64,000 nt of DNA from Psammoneis japonica (taxonomy: Eukaryota), in contig QPGO01000011.1 of NCBI GenBank assembly GCA_008632985.1, positions 496,001-560,000 on the forward strand, read 5' to 3'. Below the pieces are notes generated by a model that was not told where the DNA came from, ran no database searches, and saw only the letters and a program-made list of their open reading frames with translations. The translations under genes and the position numbers were made by a program. Numbering within the stretch: the stretch's first letter is position 1; each line of letters opens with the position of its first letter. Shown here one piece after another: positions 1 through 31,261 of this stretch.

Positions 1-3000
1 TCAGCACGCATGCACAGGAAAGGGCAAGACCATTCATTCCTGCGGCCAGCTCGAATGGGCAAAACATGATGTCAACGATCGCTCTGTCAAGGTGCCCAAC
101 GGCTTGCAACATGTCGCCACCCCTGATGGCCATGTCACCCCAATTGACATCAAGGGTGGCCTGCCTCATGTTGCCATGTGACCCCACACTGACGCCGAAT
201 GGGACACCCTGCCCCATGTCATCCTTGCCGGTGATGACACATGGGATCCTTCCATCCTCGATCACTCTGTCACTGACGACGACCAGTGGTGCGACGCGAT
301 CTCTGACCTGCAGGACGATCCCACTGCCAACCTGTTTGACGAATGCGGCAACTGCCGTCACCGTGTTGTTGTCAACAAGGCCATCGTGTCCGCCTCCTTG
401 TCTGCCGATCACGCGTCCGCCCTCGATGACCACCTCATTCCGAATGACAACATGTTCTACGAGTGTCATCTGCATGCGATTGACCCCAAGGACGATGACG
501 TTCCGCCCCCGGAGCGCACTGTGCAGCCCAAGGACCCCCCCTGCGAGTCTCTTTGGCCTCACTTTGGTTTCCAACCTGCCGATGCGGTTCGTCGCACTTT
601 CGACTGCACCACGCAGTGCGCCCGCATGCCCGCCGGCACACACCTTAAGAAGGCCTGCAAATCGCCCAACCCTGCCCTCAATGTGCACCGCCGCAACGAG
701 CCTGTCGCCACTGACACCGTTCATGCCGACACCCCGGCCGTTGACTTCATCAGCGACCGTGCTCAAGTTGAGATCAGCAACAAGGTGCTCGGGATCCTGC
801 AAGCCCTCTTTGTCTCCAGCTGGCAAAGTGAGCCTCACCAGCAACACCAAAACTTTGCTGAACGTCGACACCAGACCGTGAAGCGCATGGCGAACACTGT
901 CATGGACCGTTTCGGTTCACCTGCCCACACATGGCTGCTGGCGCTCATGTGTGTGTGCTTCACACTCAACCACACAGCGTCCCCACATCTCCACTGGCGC
1001 ACGCCCCTCGAGACTCTCACTGGCTCCACCCCAGACATCAGCCCATTGCTTTGCTTTCACTGGTGGGAACCCGTGCACTTCCACCTCGATGACTCTGATT
1101 GGCCATCCGAATCCCGTGAGTTGCGTGGATGCTTTGTTGGCATTGCTGAGCACGTCGGCCACCAGATGACCTTCAAGATTCTCTCCGACGAGACTCAGAA
1201 GATCCTCTGCCGGTCCAACATATGATCTGCTGCCACCGATCCTGCCGTTCGAAACCTGCGTCTTGATCCTCCTGATGGGGAGCCACCTGAACCCATCATC
1301 AAATCTCGCCATGATGACAACCCCGTCGATTCACCCGATGGGGAGATCAGGACACCCAAGATGCCAGTTGACGGGCTCCAGTCCCAGGTGGGACTTTTTG
1401 TGACATTTGCCCCATGGAATTCTACGTGCGAGCTCTGTAGTTCGTACTCTGGTCAATGGACACATTTGTCTTCGACATGAAACAAACGGCCAAGTTTGCA
1501 GCACATGTGTCTCCATTCGCACTCGAAGTTTTGGACAATGCGCCTGCCCCACCATTCTTAAGACACTCGAGAATGGCGTGGAAGAAAAAAATGTTAAAAG
1601 TTGTTGAATGGATCGCCTGACAATTGGCACCAAAATGATGCAAAATTTCGCCAAAATCACGTAGAAATGTACGTGCGCGACATACGACGCGATTCAAAAA
1701 ACTGTCGATGTCACAGTTCAGCAGTGCGAGGTCCCACCCAGACCTGGAACGCATCAGTTTTCGATCCGCAAGACATCATCGGACACATCTTCCTCATGCA
1801 GCCACAAGAGGATGGACAACACCACAGAGCTCGCATCGTCAAGGCCGTCGAAGACCACGAATGGAAAGTGAACGGCAACCCCGAGCTCACCAAGTTCGTC
1901 TGCTCTGTCAACAACGACGAATACGAGGAAGTCCTGGCCTGCAATGACATCATGAATCACATTGAGCAAGAAGATGAAGACACTGCTGTTTGGAAATTTT
2001 GATGCATTGTGTCACACGAAGGACCTCTGAAGCCTCATGACCCAACCTGGAAAGGCTCAAGCTGCGACATTGTGCTTGAATGGGAAAGTGGGGAGATCAC
2101 GTCCGAGCCTCTTGCCATCATCGCCAAGGACGACCCTGTCACCTGCGCCATCTGTGCACGAGAGAATGGACTTCTCGACACTGATGGCTGAAAGCGGTTC
2201 CGCACCATCGCGAGGCGCCAGAAGAAGCCACTCCGCATGGCCAACCAAGCCAAGCTTCGCTCCTTCCGCACTGCACCTCGCCACAAGTGCGGATGCGAAG
2301 TTCCCCGGAACTGCAAGCACGCCATGTCACTGGACGAACGCAACAGCAACCACAAATGGGGAGACACAACTAATCTCGAGATGGACCAACTCGAGGAATA
2401 CGAAGTCTTTCATGACTGCGGGCTCTCCGAGTCTTCCACTCCTCCTGCGGGACACAAGAAGATCCGAGTGCACCCAGTGTGCATGACGTGAAACGCGACG
2501 GCCGCCACAAGGCATGACTCGCAGCCAATGGGCACCTCACGGATGCACCCATTGACATTGTCTGCTCCGGAGCAGTCTCCCTCCATGGCCTTCGGCTGAT
2601 GATTTTCCTGGCCGAACTCAACGAGTTGGAGACATGGGCCACCGACATTGGCAATGCCTGCCTTGAAGCCACCACCAAGGAGAAGCTGCACATTGCAGCT
2701 GGACCCGAGTTTGGCAAACTCGAAGGCCACATCCTTGTCATCCACAAGGCCCTGTGTGGGCTGCGCAGCTCCGGCCTCCGCTGGCATGAGCGCTTCGCCG
2801 ACTGCCTGCGAGCTGAAGGTTTCTTCCCCGCCGTGCCGAACCCGACATTTGGATGCGCAGGAACGGTGACCACTGCGAACATGTTGCCGTTTGTGTGGAT
2901 GACCTCGCCATTGCCATGAAGGACCCTCAATCTTTCGTCGACACTCTCACGGCAAAGTGCAAGTTCAAGCTCAAGGGTGCGGGACCGATTGAGTTCCATC

Positions 3001-4011
3001 TGGGCTGCAACTTTTCCCGGGATCCTGACGGCACCTTGTGCCTGTCTCCGCGCAAGCACATCGAGCGCATGGTCGACAGCTGCACATGACTGTTTGGGGA
3101 GAAACCTGCCACCAATGCCCTGTCACCTCTGGAGAAGGGTGACCACCCCGAACTGGACACTTCCGAACTGCTGGGGCCCGATGGCATTCACCAGCTCCAG
3201 TCTCTTGTTGGTTCACTCCAATGGGCAGTGTCCCTTGGTCGAATTGACATCACCACGGCCGTCATGTCACTCTCTGGCTTCCGAGCTGCGCCCCGTCAAG
3301 GCCACTTGGATCATGCCAAACGCGTCTGTGGGTGCCTCTCCAAGATGCGACACGGCGCTCTCCACGTTCGCACGGAAGAGCCCGACTGTTCGGATCTCCC
3401 TGCTCTGGCCTGTGAATGGATGCATTCCGTGTGCGGCAAAGCAGAAGAGATGATCCCGAAGAACGCTCCACCACCCCTTGGCAAGTTTGTCACTGCCACC
3501 CACTGCGTCGATGCAAACTTGCACCATTGCATGCTCACCGGATGCTCTGTCATGGGAATGCTCCACTTCCTCAACAAATTCCCGGCTGATTGGTTCTCTA
3601 AGAACCAAGCCACCGTGGAGACTGTGACCTGTGGGTCTGAATTTGTTGCCGCAAGGACTTGTGTCGAGCAGATTGTTGACCTGTGCATCACCCTGCACCA
3701 CCCAGGCATCCCGATCCGTGACATTGGTCACATGTTCGGTGACAACAAGTCGGTTGCAGACAGCGCCACCATCCCGCACTCCAAGTTACACAAGCGACAC
3801 ACCGCACTGTCGTTCCACCATGTGCATGAGGCAATTGCCTCTGGTTGCCTTGAGCTCCACTTCATCGAAGGCTCCCGCAACCCTGCTGACATTCTCAGCA
3901 AGCATTGGGGTTGCTCCCAAGTCTGGGGCCTTCTCTGCCCCCTCATGTTCTGGAACTTCATTCCATCCGAAGTCGAGTCTGTTTCTGTGACTCCTCAAGC
4001 AAACTGGGGAG
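1..4011 (+). mobile_element. Ty1/Copia (CoDi-like) LTR retrotransposon pol relic: integrase-RT-RNase H; 5' end outside window, inactivated
   Basis: Integrase (VATDTVHADTPA, ISDRAQVE, SEPHQQHQNFAERR), RT (WATDIGNACLEA, KALCGLRSSG, VCVDDLAIA) and RNase H (CVDANL, TCGSEFVAAR, MFGDNKSV, NPADILSKHWG) in Copia order. Stops, frameshifts and Tyr->Cys/His changes throughout. Confidence 0.95.
1370..1755. mobile_element. 386-bp non-autonomous TIR element (MITE) inserted in the Copia
   Basis: 25-bp imperfect TIRs (1370-1394 vs 1731-1755, 18/25 identical) and AGTT duplication (1366-1369, 1756-1759). Removing it restores ATG CCA GTT TTC GAT CCG (MPVFDP). Confidence 0.85.
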
Positions 4012-4603
4012 TGACAGGATTTGAGCAGGATTTGGGTGCGCACGAAATGTCGCGCGCTGTTTTAGTTTGCCACACACAGTTTTGTGTGCTTCAGTTCCGT
4101 GCATTCGCACGCGATGCAGTTTGCTTTCGAGCCACAAGGCTCACAAGAATGATGACAGCAGCCCGATTGTGCCGACTTGCACATCTTTCGGCTCCTGTGA
4201 CGGTCTCTGAGCAGAGACTCATCTGCCATTTAGACAGCAGTGAGGAGTCATTGTTTGAATTCTTGCCATTTGCCTTCAATTTCTGTCACAAATTGTGTGG
4301 CGGCATGCTGGACGACGCCATGGCGACTGCGATCAGGCTGCTGTGGTCCGACGACATTCCAACTTGGGCAAATGCGCTGCAACAACATGGACGGACCCCG
4401 CCCAGACTCTAGCCCCACTCCCAGCGCGAACCATGCAGTGGTTCGCCATGCAAAATCACGGATGCGCGCGACTGTTGCCCCGAACCATCACGTGGTTCGC
4501 TGCACGCCAGAAACGACCCGACACACAATGGCCAAAAAGGTAGAAGGTAAAGAGACATCTACAACAACTTTGCATCAGTCGATGCAGCAAAGTCTATTTG
4601 ACA
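4012..4603 (+). repeat. Putative 3' LTR of the Copia element
   Basis: Starts TGACAG immediately after purine tract GGGGAG (4006-4011) downstream of RNase H. Candidate end ...TTTGACA at 4603, where TpA returns. No 5' LTR in the window to confirm it. Confidence 0.5.
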
Positions 4604-5067
4604 ATGTGTGTGTGCTTTGTTTTAGTGGTTTACTACGTTCTTAAAAGTCTCCGTACTACTGCCGTCTTGTTCATCGTCGAACCACATTTTTCTGGTGAAT
4701 TTTGGCATTTGACCCGCTGGTACAAATTACACGTAGATTTTTACGCACGTCCTCCCGAACCAAATCATGGTTCGACAATTCTACGGGGTTCTTGGTACTT
4801 ATCTACGCAGCGAACCATTGAGTGGTTCGATAATATCTTCTGGTACTGTTCTACGGTGGTTTCTACGGGGTGATAAAATCACCGCCAACGAGCATGACGG
4901 TGATTTGACGGCGACCGTGCTTCATACACGAGTGGTTGCTGACAACATAATGCATTGGTAACGATGGCTTTTTGACTCTATTAAAAGGTTATATATGCGT
5001 AGGTACTACTTTATCGTGTCAGTCGCGAGTTTCACGTTGCGCAAGTTGCGAACCACTGAGTGGTTCG
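4427..5067. repeat. Five copies of palindrome CGAACCA-N5-TGGTTCG
   Basis: Copies at 4427, 4481, 4756, 4811 and 5049, plus a half-site at 4678. Confidence 0.9.
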
Positions 5068-5234
5068 ACGTTTTGCCCGAGTGGGGCTAGTAGATTCCCC
5101 CCGCCCCGCCCGCGGCGCGCGCTGGATGCCGTAGATGGAACCTTGAATGAAAGCTCGTTGCTCGTTGCTCGTTGTGGGTCTGCTATGTCAATTATAATCA
5201 ACAACGATAACAACTCTTACAATATAACGCAACC

Positions 5235-9117: not shown

Positions 9118-11443
9118 CTTGTTAACATGTGTTATTGGCTTTGGAAATCAAGAGATGTGTCGCATTGGCGAACAAACAGTGGCAACACAGCAAATGGGCG
9201 GGAAATCCGCGAGTTCAACACAAGCGGTGGTGGAAGCGGCTGAAGCTGGCGCACGGTGAAACAATGAAGCACTGGCATCGTAGACAATTAGTATCATTCT
9301 ACGTGCATACGTCACCGTTGTCACACCGCATTCCATCTGCATCTCCGGGTTGTTCGTTCTTTAGAGGTTGAAGCTGACAGGCACTGCATTTTGGTGCGCG
9401 ACAGTGCGCCTGAACGATTCTCCCTGCCGTAGTTACACTTCTTCTTCTCCGCAAGCTACGACTCCATGTAATTTCTCCTGACCTGTTGTGCTCCAACACA
9501 ACTGTCCATGCGGTCGTGCCCGCCCCGACCCCCATGGGCCATGGGGACCATGCCTTCACCTGCCCTAAAACAATGCACACAAGATCCCTCTTTCAAACCC
9601 CATGTCCCCCCTCGATGCCATCTGCGCCATCATCAAAACACTGCTCCCCCCCAGTGGTCTGCGCCACTCTTGCCAACAAGTTCATCTAGACCCTGCCGGT
9701 CTTCTTGCTGACCACCCCTTGAAATGCCCCACCGACATTGGTGATCAACTTGCCCCGGCTCCACACGACCACCGGAAGCCTACCCACCCACCAATTTTTG
9801 GCCATCGATGTCACTGTGCCACCAGCCCACCCGCCTCCTGCACCTGGTTTGCCGCCCCTGAAAACCTGTTAAAGAATGCTCACCTTAGCAGCACACAGGA
9901 CAAGCTCCTTGGTTCAACTGCATTGTCCACCTGCCACTCCGACATCATCCCCTCGATGCTGTCGACCAAGCAGGACTTTTCCTCCTCCCGCCCTCACCTT
10001 CGATCACCTGGGTGGTGTCTGGCACCACTTTCATGTCTTCTTCTTTGGCATCTTCACCACAACATCCTCTTCTGTCCCTCCTCTCTCTCCCAAACCACAC
10101 TGGACTGATCCATCTTCTCTCTCCAGCAACTCCCCAAGCTTCCTTCTCCACCTTCAAAAACTCACTCCCAGCCCCCTCTGACTTCCTCACACCCACTCCA
10201 ACAATGCCTGGAAACAAGTGTTGCCAGACTGCTTTGGCGCCTCCCATCATGCCACAAGAACCCCCCAGCTTTGGGCCTCACACATCCTCAGCCTTGACTT
10301 TGGTGTCACTCTCTCCACCCACCTCTCTGCACGCTGCCAAGCCCTCCTTCTCTGACACCCAATTGTCAACTCCCCCTCCCGACCATCTGTCCGCACCCTC
10401 TTTTCCTTCCACCACACACTCCTGCCAACCCACCCATTCCATCACCACAGACCCCTGACACATGCACAATTGAGGGTTTTGCTTCCATCAATGTCAGCTC
10501 ACATTGTGTTGACTGCCCACAGATGACAGCAGGTTGAAAATTCTGCATGAGAAAACAAATCTGCATCAACAAGGGAGCAAAGTCAAGCTGAGTTAATGGG
10601 GTGACACTGCTGAAGTGTCAACCAGTCATCTTTTTGCACACTGTGCCCACGTCAAAGGCTGCAACACAGTGCCCCCCACTGTCCTTTGTGCACTTTTTAG
10701 TGTGCATTGTCAAAATTGTCAACAAGTCGAATTTGAAAAATGCCAGCAACAGCACTCAACAAAATGCACTTGTTTTGTGTGCTGGGCTTTCATCTGACAT
10801 CTCATCAGCTTTTTTGCACAAGCTTCAATCAAATGCATGCAATGTTTGGTTCAATTGGGGCTGACATCTTTTTTTTGCGGTGCATGGTTTGGTTTCCTTT
10901 TAATGGTGGTCATCAGTTTGAAGTTGGTTTTAACTTTGTCCTCCATGCTCATGTGCATGCATCCCTTGCACATGTGCAGCTTGCCTCATGCATGCACACA
11001 GCCCATGCTCATTTTAAATTTTTCTTCATGCTTCCCAGATTTGCACAGCCCATTGGTTTGCGGTGTTTTCAGCTTTTTTTTCACGTGTGCAATTTTCTGC
11101 ACACTTCACAACAGCGCACCTTCTCCTCAAATGTCAGAAAGCAACAGCGTGCTGCCATGATTCATGTGGATTCCACGTGTGGTCACAAATCTGCAAATTG
11201 ACAACCTGCCATGATGGTGAAAGACTTTGCCCCATTGGCCAATGACAGCAGCTCAGTGCAGGGTGAGACCTGCTGTCCTTCTGGTGGTTGGTCAAGATGG
11301 GTTTTGATTGGGGTGTTGCTTGAGTTTTGTCATCCAGAACACCAAGCCAGCAGCACGCCATTGTGTGTGTGCACATCACAAACTTTTCTGCAGCAATGGC
11401 ACAATGGCACATGTCAGAGTTTTGCTTCCAGAATCATTGCAAG

Positions 11444-11750
11444 TCACCACAAATGACACTCTTCAAACAAGGCATGTGCAAAAAGAGGTTCATTGGTTTT
11501 TGATGCATTTGCCAGCAAGAGTGCACCTGTCTTCTCCAATTTTCATGTCCAGATCCAGAAAGACTGCAGGCGGTGCTTGTTCCCACAGCTCTCAGAATCA
11601 CATGCATGAAGCGGGGCTCACCACAAATGACACTCTTCAAACAAGGCATGTGCAAAAAGAGGTTTGTTGGTTTTTGATGTGTTCACTGATGTTGCACCCG
11701 TCTTCTTCCAATTTTTGTGCCCAGATGCAGAAAGAGGACTGCAGAGGTGG
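11444..11750 (+). repeat. Two-copy direct repeat, period ~174 bp
   Basis: Identical 47-mer tcaccacaaatgacactcttcaaacaaggcatgtgcaaaaagaggtt at 11444 and 11618, followed by diverged but alignable sequence. Confidence 0.9.
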
Positions 11751-12074
11751 AGAGTGGGGAGGCAACCCATTGGAGGTTGCCTGAGTTGCAAAGCTCATTT
11801 TTAAAGGCCTCCCAAATCTCTCCACTGTTTCTGGTCCATGCTCCAAACACATCATTGATGGACCATCTGCAGCACAGGAGGTGTGGGGTGAACTCAGTCA
11901 TTGCCACATGACTTGTCATTCATGCAGTGCCTTGCCCAGTGTTGCACACATGCAGGTGGTGCTTGTTCCCACAGTTGTTCTGGCAAGTGCATTCTGTGGG
12001 CAGGGGTGGAACGGGGCACTTGACATTGCACACCAGTGTCCACGTTGCTCCAGAACAAGTGGCGCCAGATGCAC

Positions 12075-12507
12075 GGCAAGTCTGTGTTGCTGCTCCCATT
12101 GGTCATGTTGCTTCATCTGTGTCACACTCTCACAATGTGGTCTGCACTTTTTGGCAATGAACAAGGTGGATCAGAGCAACAGCACTTCTGTCACAAACTT
12201 GCCTGCTCCAGAATTAGCAGTGCTGGATGCACTGGTGAGTTCATGTTGCCATTCCTGTGGTTCATGTTGGTTCATCCATGTCACACTCTCACAACGTGTT
12301 TCACACTTTTTGGCAACAAACAAGGTGGAGTGGCAGTGCTTCCTCAATTTATGGAACAGCAGCTCCTGCTGCTGACTTGCCTGCTCCACAATCAATGGTG
12401 CCAGGCACACCGGTGAGTCTGTGTTGCCGTTCCTGTTGGTCATGTTGGTTCATCCACATTGTGCTCTCACAATGTGTTCTGCACTTTTGGCAACAAATGA
12501 GGTGGCT
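12075..12507 (+). repeat. Three-copy imperfect direct repeat (~160-177 bp period)
   Basis: Core tcatgttg.ttcatc....ctctcacaa.gtg..c..acttttggcaa..aa..aggtgg at ~12075, ~12234 and ~12411. Confidence 0.85.
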
Positions 12508-14993
12508 GCTGGCAGTGGCATTTCAAGAAAGAAAACTGCAGCTGCTGCTGCAAACTCAATTGGTGTTCTTTCCATCAGCATCATTTGAATTAAACACAAA
12601 TGACAAAATGAAATGTTTGCAACGCAAATGATTTTAATTTGAAGGTTTTGCAGGACAGAGGGTGGGAACTCTCACAGGGAAAATGGGTGGCTGTTTCACA
12701 GTGAAAATGGGGGTCAGACCCCATGGCATGAAAATGTTCATCTGTCACAGTTGAAATGCCATCGCCACATGCACAACTGGCAAGGTGTCACAGCACAGAT
12801 TTTTCACCCACAAAAGGGGAGAAAATCACTGTGAGAAAGGTGGTCTCAATCACTGCAACATGTGCTCTGATGCGCTTGCCTGGTGTGCTGTCTTGTTTTG
12901 TTTTCCTGATCTTCTGACACAGGAGGCAGTGTCCTTGCTTGACTGCTGAGTCTGTGGCTTGAGTTTTTTGGTGGAGTGGTTGTGTGCAACTCCCAACAAT
13001 GTGAGCAGATTGTCAATCAGAAACCTGGGCTGCATGCCTGAACATTTTTTGTCAATTTGAAAATGTGTGTGTGTGGGTGGGTGGGTGGGGCTGCAGCTGA
13101 GCCTGCTTTGCCATCTTTTGTCAGAGAGCACTCATGTGTGCATCCATGCCCTTGTGCTCAAAAGAGTGCACACCTTGTTTTCATGTGGGACATCTTGGCC
13201 TCCTCCTCTGTGGCACTCATCAACAAGGAAAACAGCAGCATGTGCCCAAAGAGCCTCCCAAACAAATCCAGCCAGGTGAGCTTTCAACATCTTGCCTCAC
13301 ATTGGAGTCTGAAACCACAGCTTCAATGACCAGTCAAGAAAAAATGGCCCGCGCTGTTGAACAATGTCTGAATCAACCAAAACAACCTTGATCACCCAAC
13401 AAGCAGGGCATTTGCTTTTTGAGAGTCAGCCTGACACGAGACAGTGAGAGGAGGACAGAAAACAAAGTGCTCTGTTTTCCAACCAATGTCCACTGTTCTG
13501 GTTTGGTTGAGTGTGCAGCAGGTGGCTCAACCATCACCCTTGTGTTCTCCCAGACCAGCCTTGCTGTGGTGCTGCAGCCCTTCTGTGAGACCCACATTGT
13601 CACGTTCTTTCCCAGTTGAGAGCTTCAAGGAAGCACGCTGTTGCCTTCAAAATCAGGGGAAAATGTTCATGCATTGTTTGCATCTGCCAGGCAACCACCC
13701 AGTGCAATGTTGTTGTGTGACAAATGAGCTTGCTGAGACAGCTCTGCCTGCTTGCCATGGGAGCATTTTCAGCTCAGACTCTCCAGCTCAGAAATCCAGT
13801 CTTTGGGCTCTCTGTTTTGTTCCCTTGCTCATCTGCTTTGAGTTTGAGAGCTCTCCCATGTCAATCTCTTCATCAGACAGCTTTTTCTTCATGTGCTCTG
13901 CCACTTTCTTGTTCATGTGCTGGCCCACCTCCAACTGTTTCTCCTCCAACTCTTCATTTCACCATGAGCTCAAGCTGTCATGACCACATCACACTTGTTG
14001 ATGCTGGCGTGCTTGCAGTGGGAGCATGGAGTTGCATCTGGAGTGACTGCCAACTTCTTTGCACTTGAACCTGCCATCATTCTCAGTGCATTTTGTCATT
14101 TTGTCAAAAGGGCCACCAGAAGTGTCGTGGCTGGAATCACTGCCAGCAGGAGCACTTGTTTTCATGCTTTCCTCTTTGTGCATCTCTCTCTGCAGACAAA
14201 AGCAGCCCAGGAGCGCACCATTCTGGTGAGTCTGTGTGGTGCAATGTGCTGGAAGACACTTTCTGTGTCACTCATCTTGGTGCCTTGCATCATGCGTTGG
14301 CTCTCCCATCTCTTTGCAAAACTCAACTTCGCAGTTTGGAGGGGCAACTCCGGCCCACGCTTTCTTTTCCCAGCCCTGGAGTGTGACATGGCTGTTGCAT
14401 GGCTTCAGATGCCAACACTTGCTCAACCTGTCAAAATGCCATTTGGTGCAGCAGTCACCTGGCTGCATGGGTTGCTCAACATTTCTCATGATGCTTGGGT
14501 TTGAAGAGGATTTGCGGCTCTCTTGCGACAAAATTCTTGGTTGGGCACAGCACCACGCGAGATGAGCATCCCACTCTGCAACAAAAATGGTGCTGTGTGC
14601 TCCACAGGTGCAAGTTTTCCTTCCTTTTGCTTCTTTGGGTCTCATGTGCTGTGGACCAAGAAGACAATGCCTTTTGCCGTCAGGGTGACTGGGAGCCCAT
14701 GACACTGTGCCATCAACGAACCCCAAACATCTGCTGGGTCTGTTGCTGTGTCCGCCTTGTGTGTTTCTGCCCAACCCCCCTGCACTGACAGAAAGAATTG
14801 TCATTGTCAACCCCGCAAGCAGTGGGCTTTCTTGGTTCATCCATTTCAGCACATGAAACTGCTCCAACAGAGACTTTGAGAAGTTTTGCAGGCAAGTGCC
14901 CTCTCAACCCCCGCCCACCCCACTTTCGAGAAATTCCGTCTGCTCTCTTCCGTGCATGCGGTTCACGCACAACGCACAACGCCGCAGAGGCCC

Positions 14994-15028
14994 TTGACCG
15001 TTGACCGTTGACCGTTGACCCCTGACCG
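14994..15028 (+). repeat. Heptamer tandem (TTGACCG)3-TTGACCC-CTGACCG
   Basis: Read directly; lies at the right border of the TE domain. Confidence 0.9.
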
Positions 15029-18803: not shown

Positions 18804-20489
18804 CCTCGAGGAAAGCAACGAAACAAATTTTGTGCCATTACAGGCCATGATGAAAAAATGCGTCAATCATCAATGCGCAAGAGTTCGCATTTTGATTTCA
18901 ACTATCACATTTTTGAACATGATTAGAGCCCCGCTCTACCGATCGATGATACACTTGCCATGTACTGTACCGTACCAAGGGGCCAAAAAGTAGTGCCCCC
19001 CCCCAAAATTTGAGTCTTGTACAGTATCATAGCATGGAATTACCGTATGTGACGTTGCCTGCGCGCGTGTATGTGTGAAACAGAAGGATTTGAACAAATG
19101 CGGATATATTGTCACGAATGTGGATACTTGGCTCTATTGGTCGCTGATGGCCGCCCAGCCAGCAGGAGAGTTGGTCAGGGTACGTAGTCTACTGTACTGA
19201 AACCAAGAGATAATTTACTGTAAACCACAGGTAAACCACGCTGGCCGTCATTTACACATTATTTGTACAGCATGTACATGAAGCATGCATGCATTGTGTT
19301 GCATTAGAATCCACACGCCAGCATGCCCCCATCCAAAATTTGAATGTTTCGTATATATTCTTTTACTGTTCATGGAGTGTATATACCCATAATCAAAATT
19401 CCAAATTTTCAGAAGTCGAAACCGTTGAGAACATCCGAAGGAGCACCGCGACCAGAGTTGTCCGTTTCCGTCCCCATTGTAAAACTTGTGCCGAGACGTC
19501 TCACTCTGCTCTTCACATGTTCCTGTCAGCAAATTGTGCAAGGCCACTCACATGAGCATTGTTGTTTCTGTTATTTTGCTGCATGCTTGCGACTGTTCAT
19601 TGAACGTGTCGTTTCCATTTTCTCACTTTGCATGCTGTTGATGTCATCTCCTCATTCAACCTCCAGCAAAGTGCCCTGCAGGAAAAATGCTGTGCTCTAT
19701 GATCAATTGTGTTCCATGATTGCAAGGTGTCTCCTTTTCATTCCCATTTCCATGCAACATCGATGACGACAGTGGCTGGTGGGGCAGCACTGGCAAGAGG
19801 AGTTCGTGCGCAGCTCATTTGGATGACAGGCCCATTCAGCGCTCACGCATGCAGCATGTGGAGTGCTTTGCACTGTGTTCTCATAGCCAGCTCTCTTTTT
19901 TGTTGGTGGCAGCTCTTTTGTTGGTGGCGGCGGTGGCTCTTTTGTTGGCGGTGGTTTGTGTCATCCGGGGGATCAGAAGCGCAACACATCCAGGTGCTGC
20001 ACCTTTCCATGGTGGCCCATTCGCAATGCCCTGGTCCAACAGCCAGTCATGCAATGCAATGCACAGCATGGTGGCTTTTGTTTGTCTGGTGCTGATTGTT
20101 TTTTGGTGTGTCTGTGGGTCCCACTGTGCCAGTGTTTGGTGCTGGGTTGGCCTCCAAAGGTGCTGGCTGCAATTGCGTTGGAGGCACTCTTTTGTGGTGA
20201 TGATGATCCCAGTGGGTCCCAAGTTTGTGCATCTCCAGTGCTGACTCAGATGGTGTTGCTGGTTCTGGCAGATTGAGCAAGAGTTCGAACAAGTTTGCCA
20301 GTGCCTCAATTGATGGACAAGATGATCTTTTGTCTTTTGCAGATGTTCGTGAACAGGGTGGTGGAGTTGCTGTTGGCAACGGTCCTGGTTCAAGCATTGC
20401 ATGCACTGACCCTCCACCTTTTCCAGTGCTGGGTGTGTCTTCACTGTCTGAATGCAAGGTTTTTGTCAGTGCTGAAGCAGGGTTCTCAC

Positions 20490-21700
20490 TGTCACTTGTT
20501 CAAAAGGAATCCATTTTCAACCTTGGCTTTGCATTTGAAGAGCCTGATTCTGGTCATTGGGATCTTTCCAAGTCTGACAAGAAAGCTCTCATTGTGAAGG
20601 GCAAGCTGTTCATTCCACATTGGGGAGATCACATGAAGCAGTGGCCTTGTTGTGCTGTCATTTTTGTGCATCCAGGTGAATGGGTCTCCACATTGCTGAA
20701 GGTCTCGGTGCATCTCTGGCGTCATGCACAACAGAGCCTCTGGCCAGCCAGTCTCATCGTCCCTTTTCAGACAGAAATCAAACCCCAGGTTGCCCTCTTT
20801 CATCAACTCAAGGAATCAAATTGAACTCTTTTTTTTCAGCAATTCTTTGCAAGTTCCCGGGCAAACCCAATGGCGATGTGTTGCTTGCTCTCGTCTGTGT
20901 TGATGAGTCAAGCTTGGACACAATGCTTGAAGTTTTTGATGAAATTTGCATCCATGTCAGTGTGCGCCGGCATGTGCATCTGAAGCAACAAAGGGCGGAG
21001 ATCCTTCGGCTTGACAGATGGGTTTTTCTCTGTCATGGTGATTGCGGACTCAAGACAAGCAAGATTTGGCTGAAGGCTGCCACTTGTTTCTTTTGATTTC
21101 TTGTGGTTCAACACAGTGTTGAGATCATGGCTGTGATCAAGACAAGTTCCAGTGATTTCAATGATGTGAAAAATGTCATGTTTTGGTTTCCCATGAGGAG
21201 ACGGATCCACACACTTGTTCACAAGGGAGCAGCAAATCAAGAATGGGCACTTTGTCTGCTCTTTCATGGTTGGATTGCAGGGGAGATTTTCTTCAACTTG
21301 GGACAGCACATGTTCCTCTTGTGCTGTTTGCACACTTCAAGAAGTGACAGACTGCCCTTCTTTCCATCGTGGATGCAAGTCATGGCCCACATGTCAAGGA
21401 AATGGACAACAGCCTGGCACAGCTGTTTGCAGCTGACAAAATGATGCCCTTTGGGAAACATCTTTTTTGGTGCTTTACCTTGAATGCATCCAAGCAGCAT
21501 TGGTTTTTGGAGCCGTTGGAATCTCTTCCTTGGTTTGGCCCAAGCTGTCAATCTCTTGACAAAGAGCATGACATCAGTGAGCCAGCCTTTTGCAAGAAGT
21601 TCCTTGCTTTGCTCCTTGAGAGGACGCTCCACAGAGTGAGAGCCATGTGCTCCCATGAACAATGGCATCAACACGGAGAACAATGCATCCCAATGGCATG
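20490..21700 (-). pseudogene. Mutator-like (MULE) transposase relic
   Basis: GFDFCLKRDDETGWPEALLCMTPEMHRDLQQCGD followed, after a frameshift, by LDAQK*QHNK. This resembles the MT..M...YGD.LFLD...YN region of MULE transposases, with Tyr replaced by Cys/His. Confidence 0.6.
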
Positions 21701-22063
21701 GAGGTGGAGCGGATGAGTTGGGTGAGTCAGAGGGAGAGCTGGTGGTGACTTCATGGTGAGCGTGAGCCAACCCATCAGCAGCGGTGCCTTCTTCATCATC
21801 AATGATGAGCCAGCCTGGATGCTTCGATGTGTCATCTGGCTTGTCAGAAGCATCGTCATCATTGGATTTGCATGTGTTGTCACAGGCACTGTCATCTTCA
21901 GGGCTTGTGCTGGCATTGTCATTGCTGTTGCTGCTGTCACAGTTGGGGGGAGAGCAGCCCGCATCATCAATGTCAACCACGCTGATGTTGTCAATGAAAA
22001 CTTCATTGCAAGTGTTGCTGGAGTTGTGGTGTGGAAGTGTGGCAGCACTTTAAATGCAGATTT

Positions 22064-23750
22064 CATGTTTTGTTCAACACTCTGTCTTGTCTTTCACCCA
22101 ATTCTCAGTCATCATGGCAGTGTCAGAGCTGGTGCACTGTGATGTTCACATTCCCAGAATGGGCATCAAGAATGGCGTGATGGCACAATCATTGCAATTG
22201 ATCATGGTGCATTGCACCATGTTGGTCCCATGGTTGCTTGTGCAATTGCTGAGTTCTTTGTGTGCATTCACAGATGTTTTTGAAGACCAAATCAATGCAT
22301 GGTGAGACAGGGGGCAGTTGTGTGTCTTTGCCAGTGGCTGGAAGAGGGCGCAACAGGTTCGTCCTTGGAAAAGGAAGCAGGACCATCCTGATGCCATCAT
22401 GTCATTTGTCCACAACACTGGTGTTCCTCAAATCCTTGTTGTGTCAGATGGCACACTGGAAACAGTGGAAGGCCAGAGCAAAGACATCTGCAAGGAACAC
22501 AGACCCAGAGTGGTGTGGTCTCTGTGCCACAAAGCCCCTGGCAGAACAACCCAGCACAGCCATCCACTCATGAGTCACAGAAAAGGTGTTGACACCCTTG
22601 AGCTCAAGACATGGGCCTGGACTGGACAGTTCACCAGAGGGAGCAGAATGCAAAAATGGCAAATCATTGCCAAGGCCTTGTTGGGGTGCTCTGATGTGGG
22701 CAGTTGAGCTTGGATGGATTGAAATCTTTGTTGCCATCTCACTCATGTCCTCCTGCCAGGTGGCACCACAAGTTGGACACCTGGGTGAGGTGCTCCACAT
22801 CTTTGGGTGCTTGAAGGCTCACCCAAAGTCTTCACCAGAGTGTTTCTTGACAACATCGCTGAGCCATTCTTTGATGAGAGCCAGCTCACTGCAAGCATGG
22901 CTGAGAAGAACACGACCACCCTGGTGCAGCTGAACCATTGAGGCCAAACATGGCAGAGACATGCAGGAATGGCTGGCATGACCACTGCTTGCTTTGTTGA
23001 TGCAGATCACTGTGGATGTCATGTGATGTGCAGGTGCAGTCCTGTTGTTCATCCAGCGAGTGCTCATTTTGCACAGCTCTGAGACAAGGCAGAATGCCAC
23101 AGAGTCATCTGCTGCTTTTGGGCTGGAGTTCATGGCAATGAAAGCTGCCATGGAGCAAATCAGAGCCTCTTGCATTGCAAGCTTCAGATGCCAGGAATTC
23201 CCCCTGGGTGGGGCCACTGACATCTTTTGCATCAAGAACTGAACTGGACCAGAGCCCATGTTGCAGAAAAGAAGCACAATGCAGCTGCACACCACAGGAC
23301 TCATGAAGCACAAGCAATGGGAATTGTGAGCATTGCTCTGGAGGACAGATGCTCAAACCCAGTGGATGTGCCAACCAAGTTGTTTGATGCCTGGACAGAA
23401 GCTCCTCTGGGAAATTGCAAGTCACATCTCATGGTGAGTCCCAAAAGGGGACACACCAAGCAGGTGTGCCACACACCTGGAAGTGGTTTTGTCATTTCAT
23501 CCCCAAAAATTTAGAAATCACCCTGGAATGAGGCAGCACCAGGGGGGGGGGGGGGGGTGGGTGAACAAACAATGCTGATGCACTGTCACAAATGTGGGCA
23601 GTTGTTCACCATTGGCAATTTGCCCACCGTCACTGACACAGTGGCCCCAGCAGCAGTGCAACTGACTCACAGCTCCAGAAGAACCTGTTGATGTTGCTCA
23701 ACACTCTGTCTTGTTGTCTTTCACCTCATTCTTGGCCATCATGGAAGCAT
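22064..23750 (+). mobile_element. Internally deleted Copia relic with probable LTR remnants
   Basis: Integrase (KRKQDHPDAIMSFVHNTGVPQILVVSDG), RT C-terminus (WAVELGWIEI..SLMSSCQVAPQVGHL..VLHIFGCLK) and RNase H (FVDADH, QNATESS..FGLEFMAMK, KKHNAAAHHRTHEAQA). Flanking direct repeat tcaacactctgtcttg..tctttcacc at ~22073 and ~23698. Confidence 0.8.
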
Positions 23751-26700
23751 TTGTTCAGATTCATCCTTCACTTGGAAAAACACTGCTTCCATGGTCGTTT
23801 TCTGCTTCTAAATTGAGTCTCATGATGTGAGAGTTGCTCACAGTGGCAGACCTGGTCCTTCCTGCCTCAGCTCTTAATTTTTGAGCAGCCGGCATTGACC
23901 CTGTGACTGCTGTGACTGGGTGGCAACTTCAGGGGGAGGGGTTGGAAGATGAGGAAAGGAGGAAGAAGCACCACACCAAATCTGCTCAGCTGCTGCCTGC
24001 AGTGACAAGAAGGAGGGTGAGGACATCAACACAGAGACAGAAAAAGCAGTGCACAAGGGCTGCACTGAGACAAAGAGACACTGCCACCTCTGCAAGAGCC
24101 AAGTGTGTGCAAACTGAGTCAGTGTGAAAAGAAAATTTCTTCCAAAGCAAAGGAGCTTAGAGAGTGCATGTGTTGCGAAGGGGCATTTCCCCAAAAAGGG
24201 AAAGGAGAGTGAGTTGCAACATTGTTTGGGGCAAACAGTTGGTGGAAACAGCAGCTTTGAAGTGGAGCACAACTGGACAGGGATGGCCACACTTTCTACC
24301 ACCTTTGAGCCTCTGTGTGGTGTGGCAACTGTGTGCTCCATGTGATGCCCTCCTCTGGTGTCTACAGAGGCTCTTGCAATTTCAAAGTGCAGCACATGAT
24401 TTGTTTGCACCAACCAAAAAGTTGAGAGACTCCAACTCTTCTGCCCCATGGCAAAGCCATTGTGCCATTGCTTTTGATGCTAGAATTTGCACTGGTCTGT
24501 TGCACCTGTTCACGAGCCCTCCATCTTTTGCAGCCAATGAAAGCTGGACAGAAGCTCACCCAACAATTTGTCAAAACATTGCAGAAATCTTGACTTTCCA
24601 CTTTGAGATCAAAAGAGATCCCTCAGACAAACCCAGCAACCAATCTCCCTGACAGCTGCAAATCACTTTTGAAGACAAAAGAGCAACACTTGCCATCATC
24701 ATGCTTCAATTGTGGGGCCTGATGACATTCTTTTTGTTTGCAATTGGCTGCAAACAAGCACATTTTTTGTGCTCAAAAGTGCACACCCAGAAAAGGAACC
24801 AATGCTCACATGGCTGGTGTGGTGCACCTTTCAACATGTGTGCAACTGGCTGAGAAGCAGGAAGATGCACAATGCCAAAACATGAGCAAGTGGAAGTGCC
24901 ATGTGAGACAGCTGATTGGTTGGCCCATGGGGTTGGCCAGAGTGGGAAACTGCGACACTTTGTTTGCAAGGTGCGAGCCATTTCAATTGCCAGCCCATCA
25001 ACCACACATGCAGCCCTGGCATCAGACACAATTTTGCTGCAGCTGCAAAACGGCAATCCCCTGGCTTGTCATGTGAGCTCTGCAAGTCCTTGACAAGGAA
25101 AAGCTTTTGGTGAGCTCTGTTGTGCATGGCAAACAATTGTGCGCCATTTTGCTCTTCTTTTCCATGCTCATTGGCGATGATGCATCAGCAGAAATGGCTC
25201 ATCACCACAGCCTGGTGAGCACTGCTGTTGTCAATCTGCACAAGGGTGTGTGCAGTCCAGCAATGGCAGCAAGGTTTTTGACACTTGCTTGAGAATTGCA
25301 GGCAACAGCTCACACTGGCCAAACTGACACATGGCAACATTGTTCATTTTGTGCATCTGACAAGTGGACAAGAACAACAGCACGCAGCAGTTTTTTTTCA
25401 TGAGCACACATTGTCATGTCTTCACAACAGTGCTGCAAAAAACCAGTGCTGCCACAGACCATGGCTGCTTGGGCAGTGTGTGCAACATTGCAAGAGACTT
25501 TTGCAGACACTGTCACATTGCACTTTGGCAAACAAGCATTCCATCAGCTGCTGTCAGCTCTCTGATTGAGAGACACACAGCATGAGTGATGGCAACACAT
25601 GCCAAGAACAGTCTGAACTTGGTTGGAATGCCTGGCACTGGTGTTCCTCTTCCTCTTCCTGTGACTTTTCATTGGACCCAGCCTCGTTGCCATCCAGCTG
25701 ATCATCTGGCACTTGATGCTCAAGATCATTTGCATCTTGTTGGTGTCATGATCCACTCCTGCATGCCAAAGAAGTCAAAGGAACACATCAATCTTTGGTC
25801 TTCAGCTTGGGACCATTCCTCTTGTTGTGCTTGGCTGTTGCATTGACAGCAGATGCTGCAATCACTGTCAGTGGGACAGGAATGGCAGAGACCCTGCTGC
25901 CCATGAGAACTTGTGTGGTGGCAAAGTGAAAAAAACATGTGTCACAACATTGAGAGGCCTGAGGCAAACAGCATCAACCATGCACTGTGCAGGTGTGTCA
26001 GAAGGATTTGGCTCATCACAGGCTTGGATGTGCTGGCCAAATGAAGGAAGAGACAATGACCACACTTCTTTTGAGATCTTGTGTTTGGCTTGCAGTCATG
26101 TCCAAAGCAATGGGCAGCTGGATCTCAAACTGAAGACCAGCTCAGCTTCACTGTTCAAAACTTTTCAGTTCAGTTTGAGCATCCAACACTGGGTGCAACT
26201 TGGGTGTGGCCAAAGCCTTGTGGATTGGCCAAGAATGGAAAGCTCATGACAGCACAAATGCAAAAATCTAAAGAGTGAATGAAAGCAACTGCAGCGTTCT
26301 CTGAAGGAAACAGCACCACACTTTTGCCAGTTCAAACCACACAGACTTGCCATGCACTCATGCTCAGCCCTTGTTTCTTGCAAAGCAGGTTCCCCCAAGA
26401 CCATTTTCCCAGTTCAATTGATCTTTGGCTGTTCACTGGCTTCCTGAGAACTCTTTTCAAGCAGCTTGTGAAATTCTTTCATGAGTTGACATCCCTTCTG
26501 TGTGAAATTGATGAACTGATGATTCACTCTGGGCTTTGAATCAGGAAAGGAATCCTGCCTTTTGTGCTTGGCAACAAGGCCAATGCAAACACCAGCTTCC
26601 AATTCCAAGAGGCCATGCTTCTTTTACAGATCAAGCTCCCAAAACAAAACCAAAATTCCACATTTAAAATGCTCCTGCACTTCCACCCTGCAACTCCGGC

Positions 26701-26979
26701 AACACGCCAACCCACACCCCCAGCACACTGACAGTGCGGCAGGAGCATGTGGTGATTGGCCAGAATCGGCATCATCCAAGGGTGATGCCACACCAAAATG
26801 ACTTGCAATGGTTCTTGCACCTCTGGCAGCAAACTGCACTGCTTCTCCAATGCTTGATTTGAACATTGGCCTGACCATGGCCAGCCAATTGCAGAGAGAC
26901 AATGAGTTGAATGTGTCAAATGTTCTTCAACTGAATCCAATGGATGTGCCCTGTCTCACCAGATTGCAACATGTGGCTT

Positions 26980-29100
26980 TCACCTCTGCTTTGCTCAGTG
27001 CTGCTGGGAGGACTTCCTTGTTTCCACATCGTGACCATGGACCGCATCATTGTGTTCATCCCACAGCTCCCACCACTGCTCCCAAATGCAATTGCCAATT
27101 GCAGCCACCTTGTCCAGTCTCTCATCTTGTTCAGAGAGGTTCTGATGGTGAGCACCACTTGCCAAAAGATGCAAAGTTTGTGTCATGTTCCACACTTTGG
27201 AGAAGTGTTTGTCAAACAACTGACTCCATCCAATTTGCTCCTGGGACTGGAAAACTGTCACCACACTGTGACGCAGGTCCTCAGAACAAAGCAACTCCTC
27301 CCAGAACCATGCCTCTGCGGCTGAAGGAATCAAATCGCACAAGGACGGGCATGCATGGTTGAATGATGTCACACTTCTTACACAGACCTTGTGGAAATTT
27401 TCGATGCCAAGCTTCACTGTGCAGACAATGGAGAATGTGGTCTCTGTCTTTCATTGGATCTTGACAGTGTGCACAACAATCTGGGTGGGTGGGGTTGTGT
27501 TGGTGGATGACTTTGTTTGTTGGGAGAAGTTCCTGCACCAGCTTGACCACACTGACTTTCTGGCAGATGTTCCAAGACATTGGTTTGGCGCGCATCTCCC
27601 AGTCAATCGATTTGCGGGTTTTGTTGGACCAACCACACTTCTCTTTCATGCATCATGTTGGATGACTGGCTTGCACTTGGCCAAGATTGTGGCACCCTGT
27701 GCAATTAGATTGGCACTGCAATGGGGCATGCAAGGTGCAAAAGAGCGTTGCTGGAGAAAAATGACCCTCGCATTGTCCTGCCAATCTGTTGGCTTTGATG
27801 TTCAACTGAGCTGCCAAAGACAAGGAGTCCATGGGCATTGTGATGTCTTGGTGTCCCTTGACCCAGTGGACTGAGACTTTGGCACCATGCTGCTCATTGC
27901 AAGACATTTTGAAGATTTGTCGCATGGAATGAAAATTTGATGAAGACATCCCAATCTGCGGAAAGAGCATTGGCGATGTCATGTTGCTGATGACAGTCCC
28001 TGGCACCTTGAATTGCCTCATCATCTGTCAGAAAAGGGGAAGCCTGGAAATCAGAGACATTGTGCACAAGTGAGGAACTGTCACAGTGCACAATGTCCGC
28101 ACCTTTGGCGAGCATTTTGCAACAATGTTTCATCAGTTGAAACAGGAAACAGAGGAAAGACAACAATCCACATGCTTCAACTCAGCAAGATGATGAATGA
28201 AAACCAAAAACCAGGTGGCACAATCCACCAATGGAGTTCCGTCAACTGCAAGTGTCCAACCAAACGTGCCCCAAAAATTGAGGACCCAATCCATCACTGC
28301 CCACTGAGGCTCGATGATGAACCAGCAGGTCTGTGACCTTGAACACAGACATGTGCAAAGTCAAAACATCAAACAACAAGGACTCTCATTTGGGGAGAGA
28401 TTGCAACATTGCCCTGAAGTCATTGGGAACTCCCAGAAGGGTGGGTGGCGGGGAAACCCGTGTGCCCAGGGAAGTCATTTGCCAACAACCAGCATGGGTG
28501 GCATGTGCCAATCATGCTGGGGATGCTGCAGGGGAAATTTTGGGGATTGTTGCCAAGGCAGCTGCTGATGCAGAGCATCTGTCAATCACTGGAAATGTCT
28601 GAAAACTGGAACTGTGCAAATGTGCAGGCAGTCTTCCAAAGGCTTGTTGGGCATGCTGCATGAGACATGCACATCTGGGGGTTCGGTGCTGCCCACTGCC
28701 CCAACAGATGGCTCATTTCCAACAAATTGACTTTGCACAAAAGGGAACATGCACTGTGCCATTGTCTCCAGGCCCTGGCAGATGGGTGGGATTGTTTGGT
28801 GGGATTCAAAGTCAAATGGCTGCTGAGAAGAGAGTGTTTGTGCCATTGACTTTAAATTGATTGCCAGATGTGCCATCTGGCAAAGCAACATCCAACAATG
28901 TCAGAACATTCAAACACAATCAACAACAATTCACCCACCAGATCTCCCAATCAGCAAATGCGTGTGACTCAAGTGCCATGTCCATGATGCATTGGTTGTC
29001 ATCCTGCTGCAAAGGCAACAACACACCAGTGTTGTTGAAGTCAACATGCACCTCAATCCTGGCCAAAAAGGAACAGAGAGACATGAATCAATGAGATGTG
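26980..29100 (-). mobile_element. Non-LTR retrotransposon (LINE with RNase H) 3' relic
   Basis: PLQQDDNQCIMD, PSARAWRQW..LGQW, RNase H VHWVKGHQD..LSLAAQLNIKANRLA, SIDW, CAHC..DRDHILHC zinc-knuckle-like motif, QEQIGWSQLF, WELWDEHNDAVHG. Confidence 0.75.
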
Positions 29101-31261
29101 GAATGAGGCAATTTGGTGTCAACATCTTGAAAAAAGTTGACTCCTGTGCCTTTTTCAAACTGAATCCATGCCACCACAATCTGGGAAAAAGCTTCTTGTG
29201 GTTGCCCAGAGCCTTGCCAATGTCAAAGAAACTGCAAAATCTGTGCCGCTCCCTGTCCCACACTCAAAGACCTGAAACCTCTGCCTCCCAATGAATGTGG
29301 ACCAAATGAAACAGATCAAGCTCCCAATTGTCACCAGCATCAACAGGGGCCCAAAGTTTCGTGTGCGTCTCATTCGGCATTGGTGCCCAGCACAAGCTTT
29401 CTCTGCATGTTTCTTCTTCTTGGTGTGTGTGTGTGCCCCCTTGTGCCTCCAGAAATCCATTCATCCCACCCTCATGATTGGCACTTTCTGTTTCAGTGCA
29501 TCATGACAAAGAATTGGGTTTGTTGTCCACAGCGGAGGCACAGAAAATTTCTAATTCCCAACTGGGCTTCCATTTGGTGGGCAATCCATGTGGCGTCATT
29601 TGCGGCTGCAAAGGCGCCATTGCTTTTGACTCTCCAGCAGGAGCATTGGTGCCATGTCCATCCGTGGGTTTGGAGAAGACACGTGATGTGACTGCAGATT
29701 GCACTGGGGGCATGGTTGTTGGCATTGATGTTGTTGGAGCTGAGGTTGCATTGCAGGATGCAGTTGGGCATGGCATTGCCATCATCATGGTCAAAATGGT
29801 CTTTGCTTCTTTGCTTCAGTGGCAGCTGCCACCAGCGGATGTGAAACTGGTCGATGCCTGGCACATGCCAAAAAGTGCCTTTTTTGCTGCATCTCTCCAC
29901 CTCTCACATTACGTTGAAAATGCCATTGTGTTGTCACTGTCACATTTGCAGACAAGAATCATCACAATGGGGTGTGCCAATGGAGCAAAGGATTGGAAGA
30001 AATGCAACAGACGACTGTCCACAGTGGCAGAAAAAGAAGCAAGGGCCAGCAAGAGATGAGGGGGGTGGGCTGCAGAGCATGCAGAGAAACATTGGAAGGA
30101 TGATGAGGAGTGAGAAAAGGAAAAAAGGAAGGCAAACTTTTTTGCCACCCAGACAAAGCACAATGAAAATGCAAAAGAAACAGAGCAGGAGCAACAACCC
30201 AAGCCAGACATCTCCATTGCAAAGAAACAAACGTTGCTGGTTGCAACAGCACAGAGATGTGCACTTGCAAACATTGGTGCAAACCTTGATGATGAAAGTG
30301 AAAAGGGCACTGATGACCAATGCAATGAAGCAGCTGAAGGCATGGAGGGAGGATGATCTTTTGTCATGAAGGATTGTTTTTCTGCCACACTCTCACATTT
30401 CACAGAAGAGGACTCGCCAGTGTTTTGGGAGAAAAACCCAAGCGGTCGGCAAGCTGAAGTTGTTGGAGGGGTTGGCCAAAATTGCAGATGAAGCACGGGA
30501 CTTGTTTGGATCCATGCATTGCACCCAGCTCACAGCATGTGCCTTTCAAAAGCAGTCACAAATGAAGCTCCCCCCCACACTTGTGAACATGCGCAAGTGG
30601 AGAATGATCTTGCTGTTGTCCTCTCTGAGCCACTTTCTGGGGGGGTCATTCCATCTCATTGTGTTTGCTGCCTTCCACCACCAATGATCCTCCGGAGGAA
30701 TGTTCTTGGCCAAGCAGGGTTCCATGTCACAAGTGTCCAAGGCAGTGTCCTCAATAAATTGTGTCCAATGTTTGCACTGCTCTTCACTCCAGAAGCCACA
30801 CTGCCCCCCTGAGACTTTAAAAGGATCTTCTTCTTCACCAGAATAAAAAGTGATTTCATTCGCTTGAGAGATCCCCCCACCGGCAGTTGGTGTGTCTGTC
30901 AACACGTGCAACTAGCTAGCTAGAGAGGAGGTAGGTTCCTACCGCAGGAAGATGCACAAAACTAAAACGTTGTCTCACAGGAGTGCTGTGCCGCAGGAGT
31001 CAGCTGATTGGCTCACAGGATTGGCCAGTGCATGCAGCTCTCACGCTCCGCACGGTGTCAGAAGCGGGTTGGGGTGTTCCTCTCCACCAGCGCATTGCCC
31101 ACTACTTGGAGAGTAGAGGGCTAGCTACTAGGAATCTGGAGGACGCAAGATGAAGTCTATTTTTTACAGAACACATTATTTCTAAAATCGGAGGAGGCCG
31201 TTCTATGAAAAGCATCCTTGAAACACCGACGAGTTTCGCTCAGACCTGTTCTTTAAACTTC

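Follow-up and report, generated by a model that had tools for sequence, protein, structure and literature searches.

Reciprocal CA/TG differences within a diatom transposon point to repeat-confined loss of both TpA and CpG in Psammoneis japonica

In ascomycete fungi, repeat-induced point mutation (RIP) turns C into T, usually at CpA, and so creates TpA; homology pairing during the sexual cycle sets it off, and it depends on RID/DIM-2. In diatoms, transposons are described as CG-methylated, with DNMT5 (PMC9998398), so far as the accessible part of that source goes. Closest to the present case is the rhizarian alga Bigelowiella natans, for which the available part of a preprint by Mettrop et al. 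(10.64898/2026.01.13.699255) reports de novo TpA>TpG/CpA hypermutation, measured in integrated DNA of NCLDV (nucleocytoplasmic large DNA viruses) and of virophages, at a rate per generation raised about 1000-fold and in only some lines. These authors propose, without demonstration, an ADAT-type deaminase, with a candidate bearing HxE and PCxxC motifs, and suggest that the process reaches transposons, transposon domains being among the TpA-poor coding sequences. Here we analyse 64,000 nucleotides of the diatom Psammoneis japonica (GCA_008632985.1, contig QPGO01000011.1, positions 496,001 to 560,000; this whole stretch is called the window, and plain positions are counted from its first letter), in which a non-autonomous PlavakaB-like DNA transposon holds two internal repeat units that differ from each other by reciprocal CA/TG swaps.

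Our results make it quite probable that these swaps are products of two strand-symmetric transition processes acting on silenced diatom repeats, one at TpA and one at CpG, both ending in CA or TG. By its sequence features the TpA process would belong to the B. natans type, with which it shares the change of TpA to TpG/CpA, the action on both strands, the restriction to foreign or repeat DNA, the clusters rich in CpA and TpG and poor in TpA, and the sparing of host genes (here a repeat block differs at 12 of 30 TA, its flanks at 0 of 94). The two cases also differ: the targets in B. natans are single-copy viral integrations, whereas here they are multicopy transposons of several classes in a diatom host; the observed/expected ratio (o/e) of TA is 0.03 here, near saturation, against 0.45 in the B. 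natans NCLDV region; and de novo rates were measured in B. natans, while the diatom process is known from scars alone. Here, moreover, the TpA loss accompanies a CpG loss, prefers TAY (Y, pyrimidine) and spares TTAA; the terms diatom, CpG, TTAA, context and trinucleotide are absent from the available main text of the preprint. With RIP the process has in common repeat-confined, dinucleotide-specific transitions on both strands that kill transposon genes. However, RIP creates TpA, while the diatom process removes TpA and produces CpA (TA o/e 0.03, CA 1.82), and C>T is rarer at CpA (0.003) than at CC/CT (0.013), so RIP, with its C to T at CpA and its TpA enrichment, was rejected as the process. 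Decay of methylated CpG resembles the second process in being repeat-confined and symmetric (CG to TG and CA, 19:19), but it covers sites of the CG class only and leaves the TA loss outside; for example, the Copia-type element at 1-4400 lost TA and kept most CG.

In the alignment of the two 126-bp units there are 17 substitutions, of which 15 are transitions; six CA/TG swaps (Table 1) account for 12 of the transitions. The five double differences reported in a preliminary description of this locus, sites A to E, are thus real and lie all inside 55 bp, and a sixth, site F, adjoins a 3-bp indel. When 15 transitions were placed randomly in 200,000 trials, swaps numbered 0.39 on average and 4 at most. 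As to dinucleotide content, there are no TA, 3 CG, 38 CA and 31 TG in 11444-11750, and 9 TA, 21 CG, 279 CA and 263 TG over 10650-12872. TA-free DNA near the units is matched by contigs of a public DNA run, possibly the source sample of the window itself, with 0-1 differing letters per listed piece (e.g. 9838-10570, 11287-11458 and 11945-12170; none listed covers sites A-E); no RNA run was listed as containing this DNA. Several 1-3 bp indels relative to these contigs occur in 9437-14482 and may reflect differences between alleles or errors left in the assembly.

Table 1. Positions of the transposon, its repeat units and swapped sites, and the repeat blocks of the window
Feature	Coordinates	Strand	Details
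Non-autonomous PlavakaB-like DNA transposon	10650..12872		2,223 bp
Left terminal inverted repeat	10650..10673	+	degenerate in window copy; family ends CATCAGAG
Right terminal inverted repeat	12849..12872	-	ends CTCTGATG
2-bp target-site duplication	left 10648..10649; right 12873-12874		left CA; right CG
Internal repeat unit 1 of transposon	11444..11569	+	
Internal repeat unit 2 of transposon	11618..11744	+	174-bp spacing from unit 1
Site A	11491..11492 CA; partner 11665 TG		104 copies: 85 CA, 6 TG, 12 CG, 0 TA
Site B	11506..11507 CA; partner 11680 TG		104 copies: 48 CA, 50 TG, 3 CG, 0 TA
Site C	11510..11511 TG; partner 11684 CA		104 copies: 53 CA, 19 TG, 31 CG, 0 TA
Site D	11513..11514 CA; partner 11687 TG		28 CA, 32 TG, 2 TA, 0 CG
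Site E	11544..11545 CA; partner 11716 TG		18 CA, 56 TG, 15 TA, 2 CG
Site F, adjoining indel	11516..11517 CA; partner 11690 TG		unit-2 column, n=49: 19 CG, 17 TG, 10 CA
TpA- and CpG-stripped repeat block	9900..15000		TA o/e 0.03, CG 0.20, CA/TG 1.82
Second TpA- and CpG-stripped block	19500..30750		TA o/e 0.03, CG 0.17
Copia-type element	1..4400	+	TA o/e 0.08, CG o/e 0.78; control polarised by protein
Reverse-transcriptase element fragment, TpA-stripped	9435..10400		at least 40 copies; RVT_1 present in relative L101
Family C, older low-copy repeat	10502..14956 (approx.)		transposon inserted into family C; relatives without insertion

The direction of both changes was read from the cleanest before/after pair found, two Plavaka-domain copies that are 94% identical over 2,889 bp (L145, positions 2841-5729, at G000:C267:66340-69230, and L147 at G000:C37:435700-438580), of which L145 is the less mutated. 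From L145 to L147, 82 TA became 27 CA, 36 TG and 1 other while 18 stayed TA, and only 2 changes went in reverse (p 1e-16); the two strands are in balance (27 CA vs 36 TG, p 0.31). In the same pair, the CG of the less-mutated copy were kept 92 times and became 19 CA, 19 TG and 2 other. An independent polarity comes from the Copia-type element, scored against 45 full-length relatives (outgroup proteins) out of 120 listed, the top match (P0001) having a Tyr content that indicates no TpA mutation. Among its 34 conserved Tyr columns only 1 still reads Tyr; 19 have become Cys, 11 have become His and 3 read something else, whereas the other conserved columns are retained in 563 of 638 cases; 14 of 47 Arg columns are altered as predicted from CG loss. 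Thus TpA changed to TpG/CpA on both strands in DNA transposons as well as in retroelements, and CpG changed symmetrically to TpG/CpA in repeats. Genic DNA of the window has a TA o/e of 0.57 and a CG o/e of 1.0, and in the three stripped blocks the o/e of CA and TG rises to 1.5-1.8. That the Copia-type element lost TA and kept most CG, while the older blocks lost both, suggests that TA loss is the faster process and is separable from CG decay.

For the ancestry of each swapped site, 112 unit copies were gathered and 8 segmental near-duplicate rows removed, leaving 104, and a four-state likelihood model was applied to 148 columns of 49 copies (4 near-duplicate rows removed) on a tree from the remaining 383 columns. 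The preliminary description had held that TA and CG ancestry could not be told apart from the two units alone and had asked for less-mutated copies; with these copies the two become separable and both are found, so that the question is largely answered: both contribute. In fact sites D and E derive from TA, and sites C and F derive from CG. The root posteriors of the model are 0.999 for TA at both D and E, and 1.0 and 0.86-0.92 for CG at C. At site D a further 40 copies read TT, which is the other unit-2 subtype; at site E, 2 of the 15 copies keeping TA are close relatives of the window copy. The fitted rates are 11.2 for TA loss and 2.5 for CG loss, with 0.17 and 0.10 for the reverse, similar under two rootings, and the fit worsens by 241 log-likelihood units when fast TA loss is left out and by about 350 when fast CG loss is. 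Where a column has just one CG or a few, little can be concluded from it, because near-invariant CA columns carry some too. The 80 and 39 matches from two pattern scans for the element were mutated almost without exception, and no TA-rich copy of the element was found among the copies searched, the best holding 12 TA in 679 columns.

Whether the changes arose in place is seen most directly in two versions of one 9.6-kb segment, C329/C58. Their TA-rich flanks differ at 0 of 94 TA and 2 of 176 CG, while the repeat block differs at 12 of 30 TA and 17 of 100 CG, including 7 swaps; as TA differs in the block and nowhere in the flanks, the mutation occurs in place. The target-site duplication of the window copy, CA on the left and CG on the right, likewise means that one side was altered after insertion. 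In a strict singleton set, where four near-identical segments were polarised by a fifth, T[A>G] (A to G after T) was counted at 8 of 635 positions against 1 of 7,710 for R[A>G] (R, purine), and CpG C>T at 25 of 2,039 against 1 of 5,577 for C>T before C or T. Both processes are limited to repeat blocks, and they affect copies that already sit in the chromosome. The assertion that the mutation happened in situ after duplication nevertheless needs care, because the duplicated units are part of a transposon that has copies genome-wide and many CA/TG columns track the family tree (e.g. 4 steps vs 15.8 shuffled); such columns mean that mutated masters went on transposing, and hence some mutated states were spread by later transposition and only part of the change belongs to the inserted copies. 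In other columns a tree signal is absent, which is what hits made independently would give. One could go further and suppose that all five differences were inherited from a mutated master and that nothing happened at the window locus, considering that the duplication is common to the family and that so many columns follow its tree. We regard this as unlikely: close relatives of the window copy, which are not alike, still have CG at site C and TA at site E, the target duplication of the window copy reads CA/CG, and in the model each terminal branch gains 0.10.

The TpA process has a marked sequence context, preferring TAY and sparing TTAA. All 9 TA remaining in the transposon are preceded by T, and 6 of them lie in TTAA; relative to genic density the stripped blocks keep TTAA at 0.46 and TTAG/CTAA at 0.22, all others at 0.02-0.05. 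Between L145 and L147 the edited strand is the TAY strand in 27 of 31 asymmetric sites, with RTAY retained in 1 of 17 cases and YTAR in 11 of 21; the transposon family has the same TAY direction, by counts that are non-independent. Protection by a 3' A alone was rejected as too narrow, since TAG is disfavoured too. CpA as a strong second target is not supported, with C[A>G] at 0.010 vs 0.014 at AA and GA; in the strict set C[A>G] reaches 5 of 4,868 against the R[A>G] count given above, and a weak excess is possible. Outside TpA, A>G is 2-5 times commoner before a pyrimidine in the transposon core alignment (11180-11836), namely 0.025 at A[A]Y vs 0.006 at A[A]R, 0.017 at C[A]Y vs 0.003 at C[A]R, and 0.020 at G[A]Y vs 0.010 at G[A]R. 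This bias may be either off-target editing or a general mutation bias.

As for the mechanism, a single TA or CG changed on opposite strands in the two copies would yield a CA/TG swap. The TpA change would be DNA adenine deamination, in which A becomes hypoxanthine and is read as G, possibly through the recruitment of an enzyme of the TadA/ADAT type to the chromatin of repeats, and the CpG change would be deamination of 5-methylcytosine on CG-methylated transposons. Since the change wrecks transposon proteins, its effect may be genome defence. The genome holds five PF14437 matches, among which we read L118 as TadA-like, L122 as ADAT2-like and L119/L120 as dCMP deaminase-like; this family was matched in 12 of 14 control genomes, and such genes are housekeeping. 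There are also two A_deamin loci, and 27 matches to PF00145, in which the classes of DNA methyltransferases (DNMT) are pooled. The candidates of TadA/ADAT2-like and A_deamin type are at G000 C38:7371, C26:119854, C40:112674 and C79:344558. As a separate observation, at L121 (319-1791, minus strand; G000:C79:88500) a single open frame of 491 amino acids joins a zinc deaminase domain with a 2OG-Fe(II) dioxygenase.

Several points weigh against this reading. TadA/ADAT2-like and A_deamin genes are expected for tRNA editing anyway and none is singled out, and A>G and T>C chemistry have the same sequence outcome. The family counts are non-independent and biased to copies resembling the queries; the model assumes a single rate per class, and its tree, from only 383 columns, has several weak nodes. 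Site B is TA-derived by the model alone (root posterior of TA 0.96-0.99), as no copy retains TA. At site A the ancestor was probably CA, the root posterior being 0.95 for CA in unit 1 and, in unit 2, 0.44-0.52 for TA vs 0.47-0.55 for CA, and its swap probably passed through a later CG. Here, then, the earlier view that every swap goes back to a palindromic dinucleotide resolved on opposite strands, which stands for most sites, probably fails at one, where an ancestral CA, the very state named as contrary to it, is indicated. The C329/C58 versions are either alleles or duplicates. Among the newest changes, TpA loss and CpG loss are about equal (12.6 vs 12.3 per 1,000), and in the strict recent set, which is small and whose surviving sites are pre-filtered, T[A>G]Y (3 of 256) is not above T[A>G]R (5 of 379).

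Two other origins of the TpA change deserve comparison with adenine deamination. Pol eta favours A>G at TA, and an error-prone polymerase of this type, working in patch repair of repeat chromatin, could leave such changes; the rise of A>G before pyrimidines outside TpA (A[A]Y, C[A]Y) would suit it. Such a polymerase should hit AA too and leave transversions, yet ApA is undepleted (o/e 1.2), R[A>G] is far below T[A>G] in the strict set, and 63 of 64 changed TA became CA or TG, with 1 other, which makes this origin improbable. Equally improbable in our view is a thymine lesion, in which the T of RTA carries a modification, pairs wrongly with G and so ends as T>C. In sequence this cannot be told from A>G on the opposite strand, and fungal PlavakaB elements may carry TET/JBP dioxygenases (PMC12730594, in the part available), but nothing in the genome gives it positive evidence, and the B. 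natans preprint, so far as its available text goes, argues for adenine deamination. A search with the Tet_JBP profile had no match anywhere, controls included, and is hence uninformative.

That all swaps came from CG alone through decay of methylated cytosine, with no TpA process, has much less in its favour. CG decay is real and accounts for sites C and F and probably A, and the methylation of diatom transposons cited above agrees with it. It is however refuted by the polarised losses, with 63 TA lost vs 2 gained in the Plavaka pair, and it meets further difficulty in the TA o/e of 0.03 in the block, the TA surviving at D and E, the 30 of 34 Copia Tyr columns turned to Cys or His, and the loss of likelihood without fast TA loss; we consider it highly improbable. 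A-to-I editing of transposon RNA followed by fixation through reverse transcription, for which one may cite the two A_deamin loci and the preference of ADAR-type enzymes for U 5' of the edited A (10.64898/2026.01.13.699255, available part), is practically excluded because of the near-equal strands (27 CA, 36 TG) in a DNA transposon without RNA intermediate, and the changes distinguish versions of one chromosomal segment (C329/C58). Adenine deamination at TpA next to methyl-CpG decay remains our preferred reading.

The element that carries the units is, judged from its sequence, a PlavakaB-like non-autonomous transposon, which may be mobilised in trans by Plavaka-domain elements. PlavakaB, of the CMCT clade, is defined by CATCA..TGATG termini and 2-3 bp target duplications (PMC12730594, available part); the element shares these termini and has 2-bp duplications, and it differs in its host, a diatom where that source treats fungi, and in being short and lacking similarity to the Plavaka coding loci tested. 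It has at least 40 copies (40/91 candidates scored). In 25 end pairs the 2-bp duplication was identical in 19, a CA/TG swap in 1 and different in 5, and no 3-bp duplication was identical; shuffled end pairs gave a mean of 2.4 identical at 2 bp and a maximum of 9. Empty-site relatives at the window target read CG, CA and TG. A TA target-site duplication of the Tc1/mariner kind was ruled out, as the 2-bp duplication varies. Plavaka-domain matches in the genome number 11, of which 8 exceed the cut-off, and these 11 loci had no tblastx or blastn match to the window. Among these matches, elsewhere in the genome, are 7.4-kb Plavaka-domain elements (G000:C74:207893-215319, C108:177028-184453 and C303) that have 2-bp duplications and CATCAGAG ends, opening with the same eight bases as the transposon family does; they are nearly without tyrosine, with 3 Tyr in a 972-amino-acid frame. 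Parts of the transposon also occur near a contig end (G000:C1:1180000-1209700), in each unit of a tandem array of about 6 kb period that is almost without TA and whose units differ chiefly at CG. In G000:C42, C367, C440, C443 and C123, four or five near-identical segments (94-99.5%) extend over more than 10 kb, and the transposon copy within them holds a nested insertion of about 4 kb.

In the window itself, the middle block is made of nested repeats, namely the reverse-transcriptase fragment, family C, and the transposon inside family C. At its sharp right edge, where TA-free DNA ends, the 7-bp repeat TTGACCG stands in five tandem copies (14991-15028). Further to the right lie two similar genes that we read as casein-kinase-1-like, both on the minus strand (31262-32098 and 35147-35812); a 602-amino-acid gene between them had no Pfam match. 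The named relatives of one window gene include diatoms. The silicon-transporter family has 24 matches in the genome (best E 2e-208), and at G000:C38:226311-230342 a 1,511-amino-acid open frame contains three tandem silicon-transporter domains.

Taken at its widest, the analysis would describe a repeat-targeted DNA adenine editor in diatoms, specific for A-to-G at TpA with a TAY preference, dedicated to this task and acting on both strands of chromosomal DNA and on all transposon classes, with near-complete loss of TpA; for this we see the probability as evenly balanced. In the searched literature, from which most subscription papers were out of reach, searches for such a process in diatoms or transposons turned up the B. 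natans preprint alone, so that natural chromosomal adenine deamination as a defence is there represented by one preprint on one rhizarian alga. The same signature appears here at saturation, in a stramenopile, and on DNA transposons and retroelements. If the editor is true and shared with the rhizarian alga, it would be an old genome-defence system of the group of stramenopiles, alveolates and Rhizaria (SAR) that runs counter to RIP, and it would be nature's equivalent of the adenine base editors that have been engineered. The favoured TAY and spared TTAA give a sequence preference usable against candidate enzymes, and site-resolved series of TA, CA and TG states are available as well. Moreover, in such genomes distortion affects what is derived for transposons as consensus, age or protein annotation, and a CA/TG swap should not be ascribed to CpG decay only. 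The five swaps from which the analysis set out are a small local sample of a genome-wide process that erases TpA.
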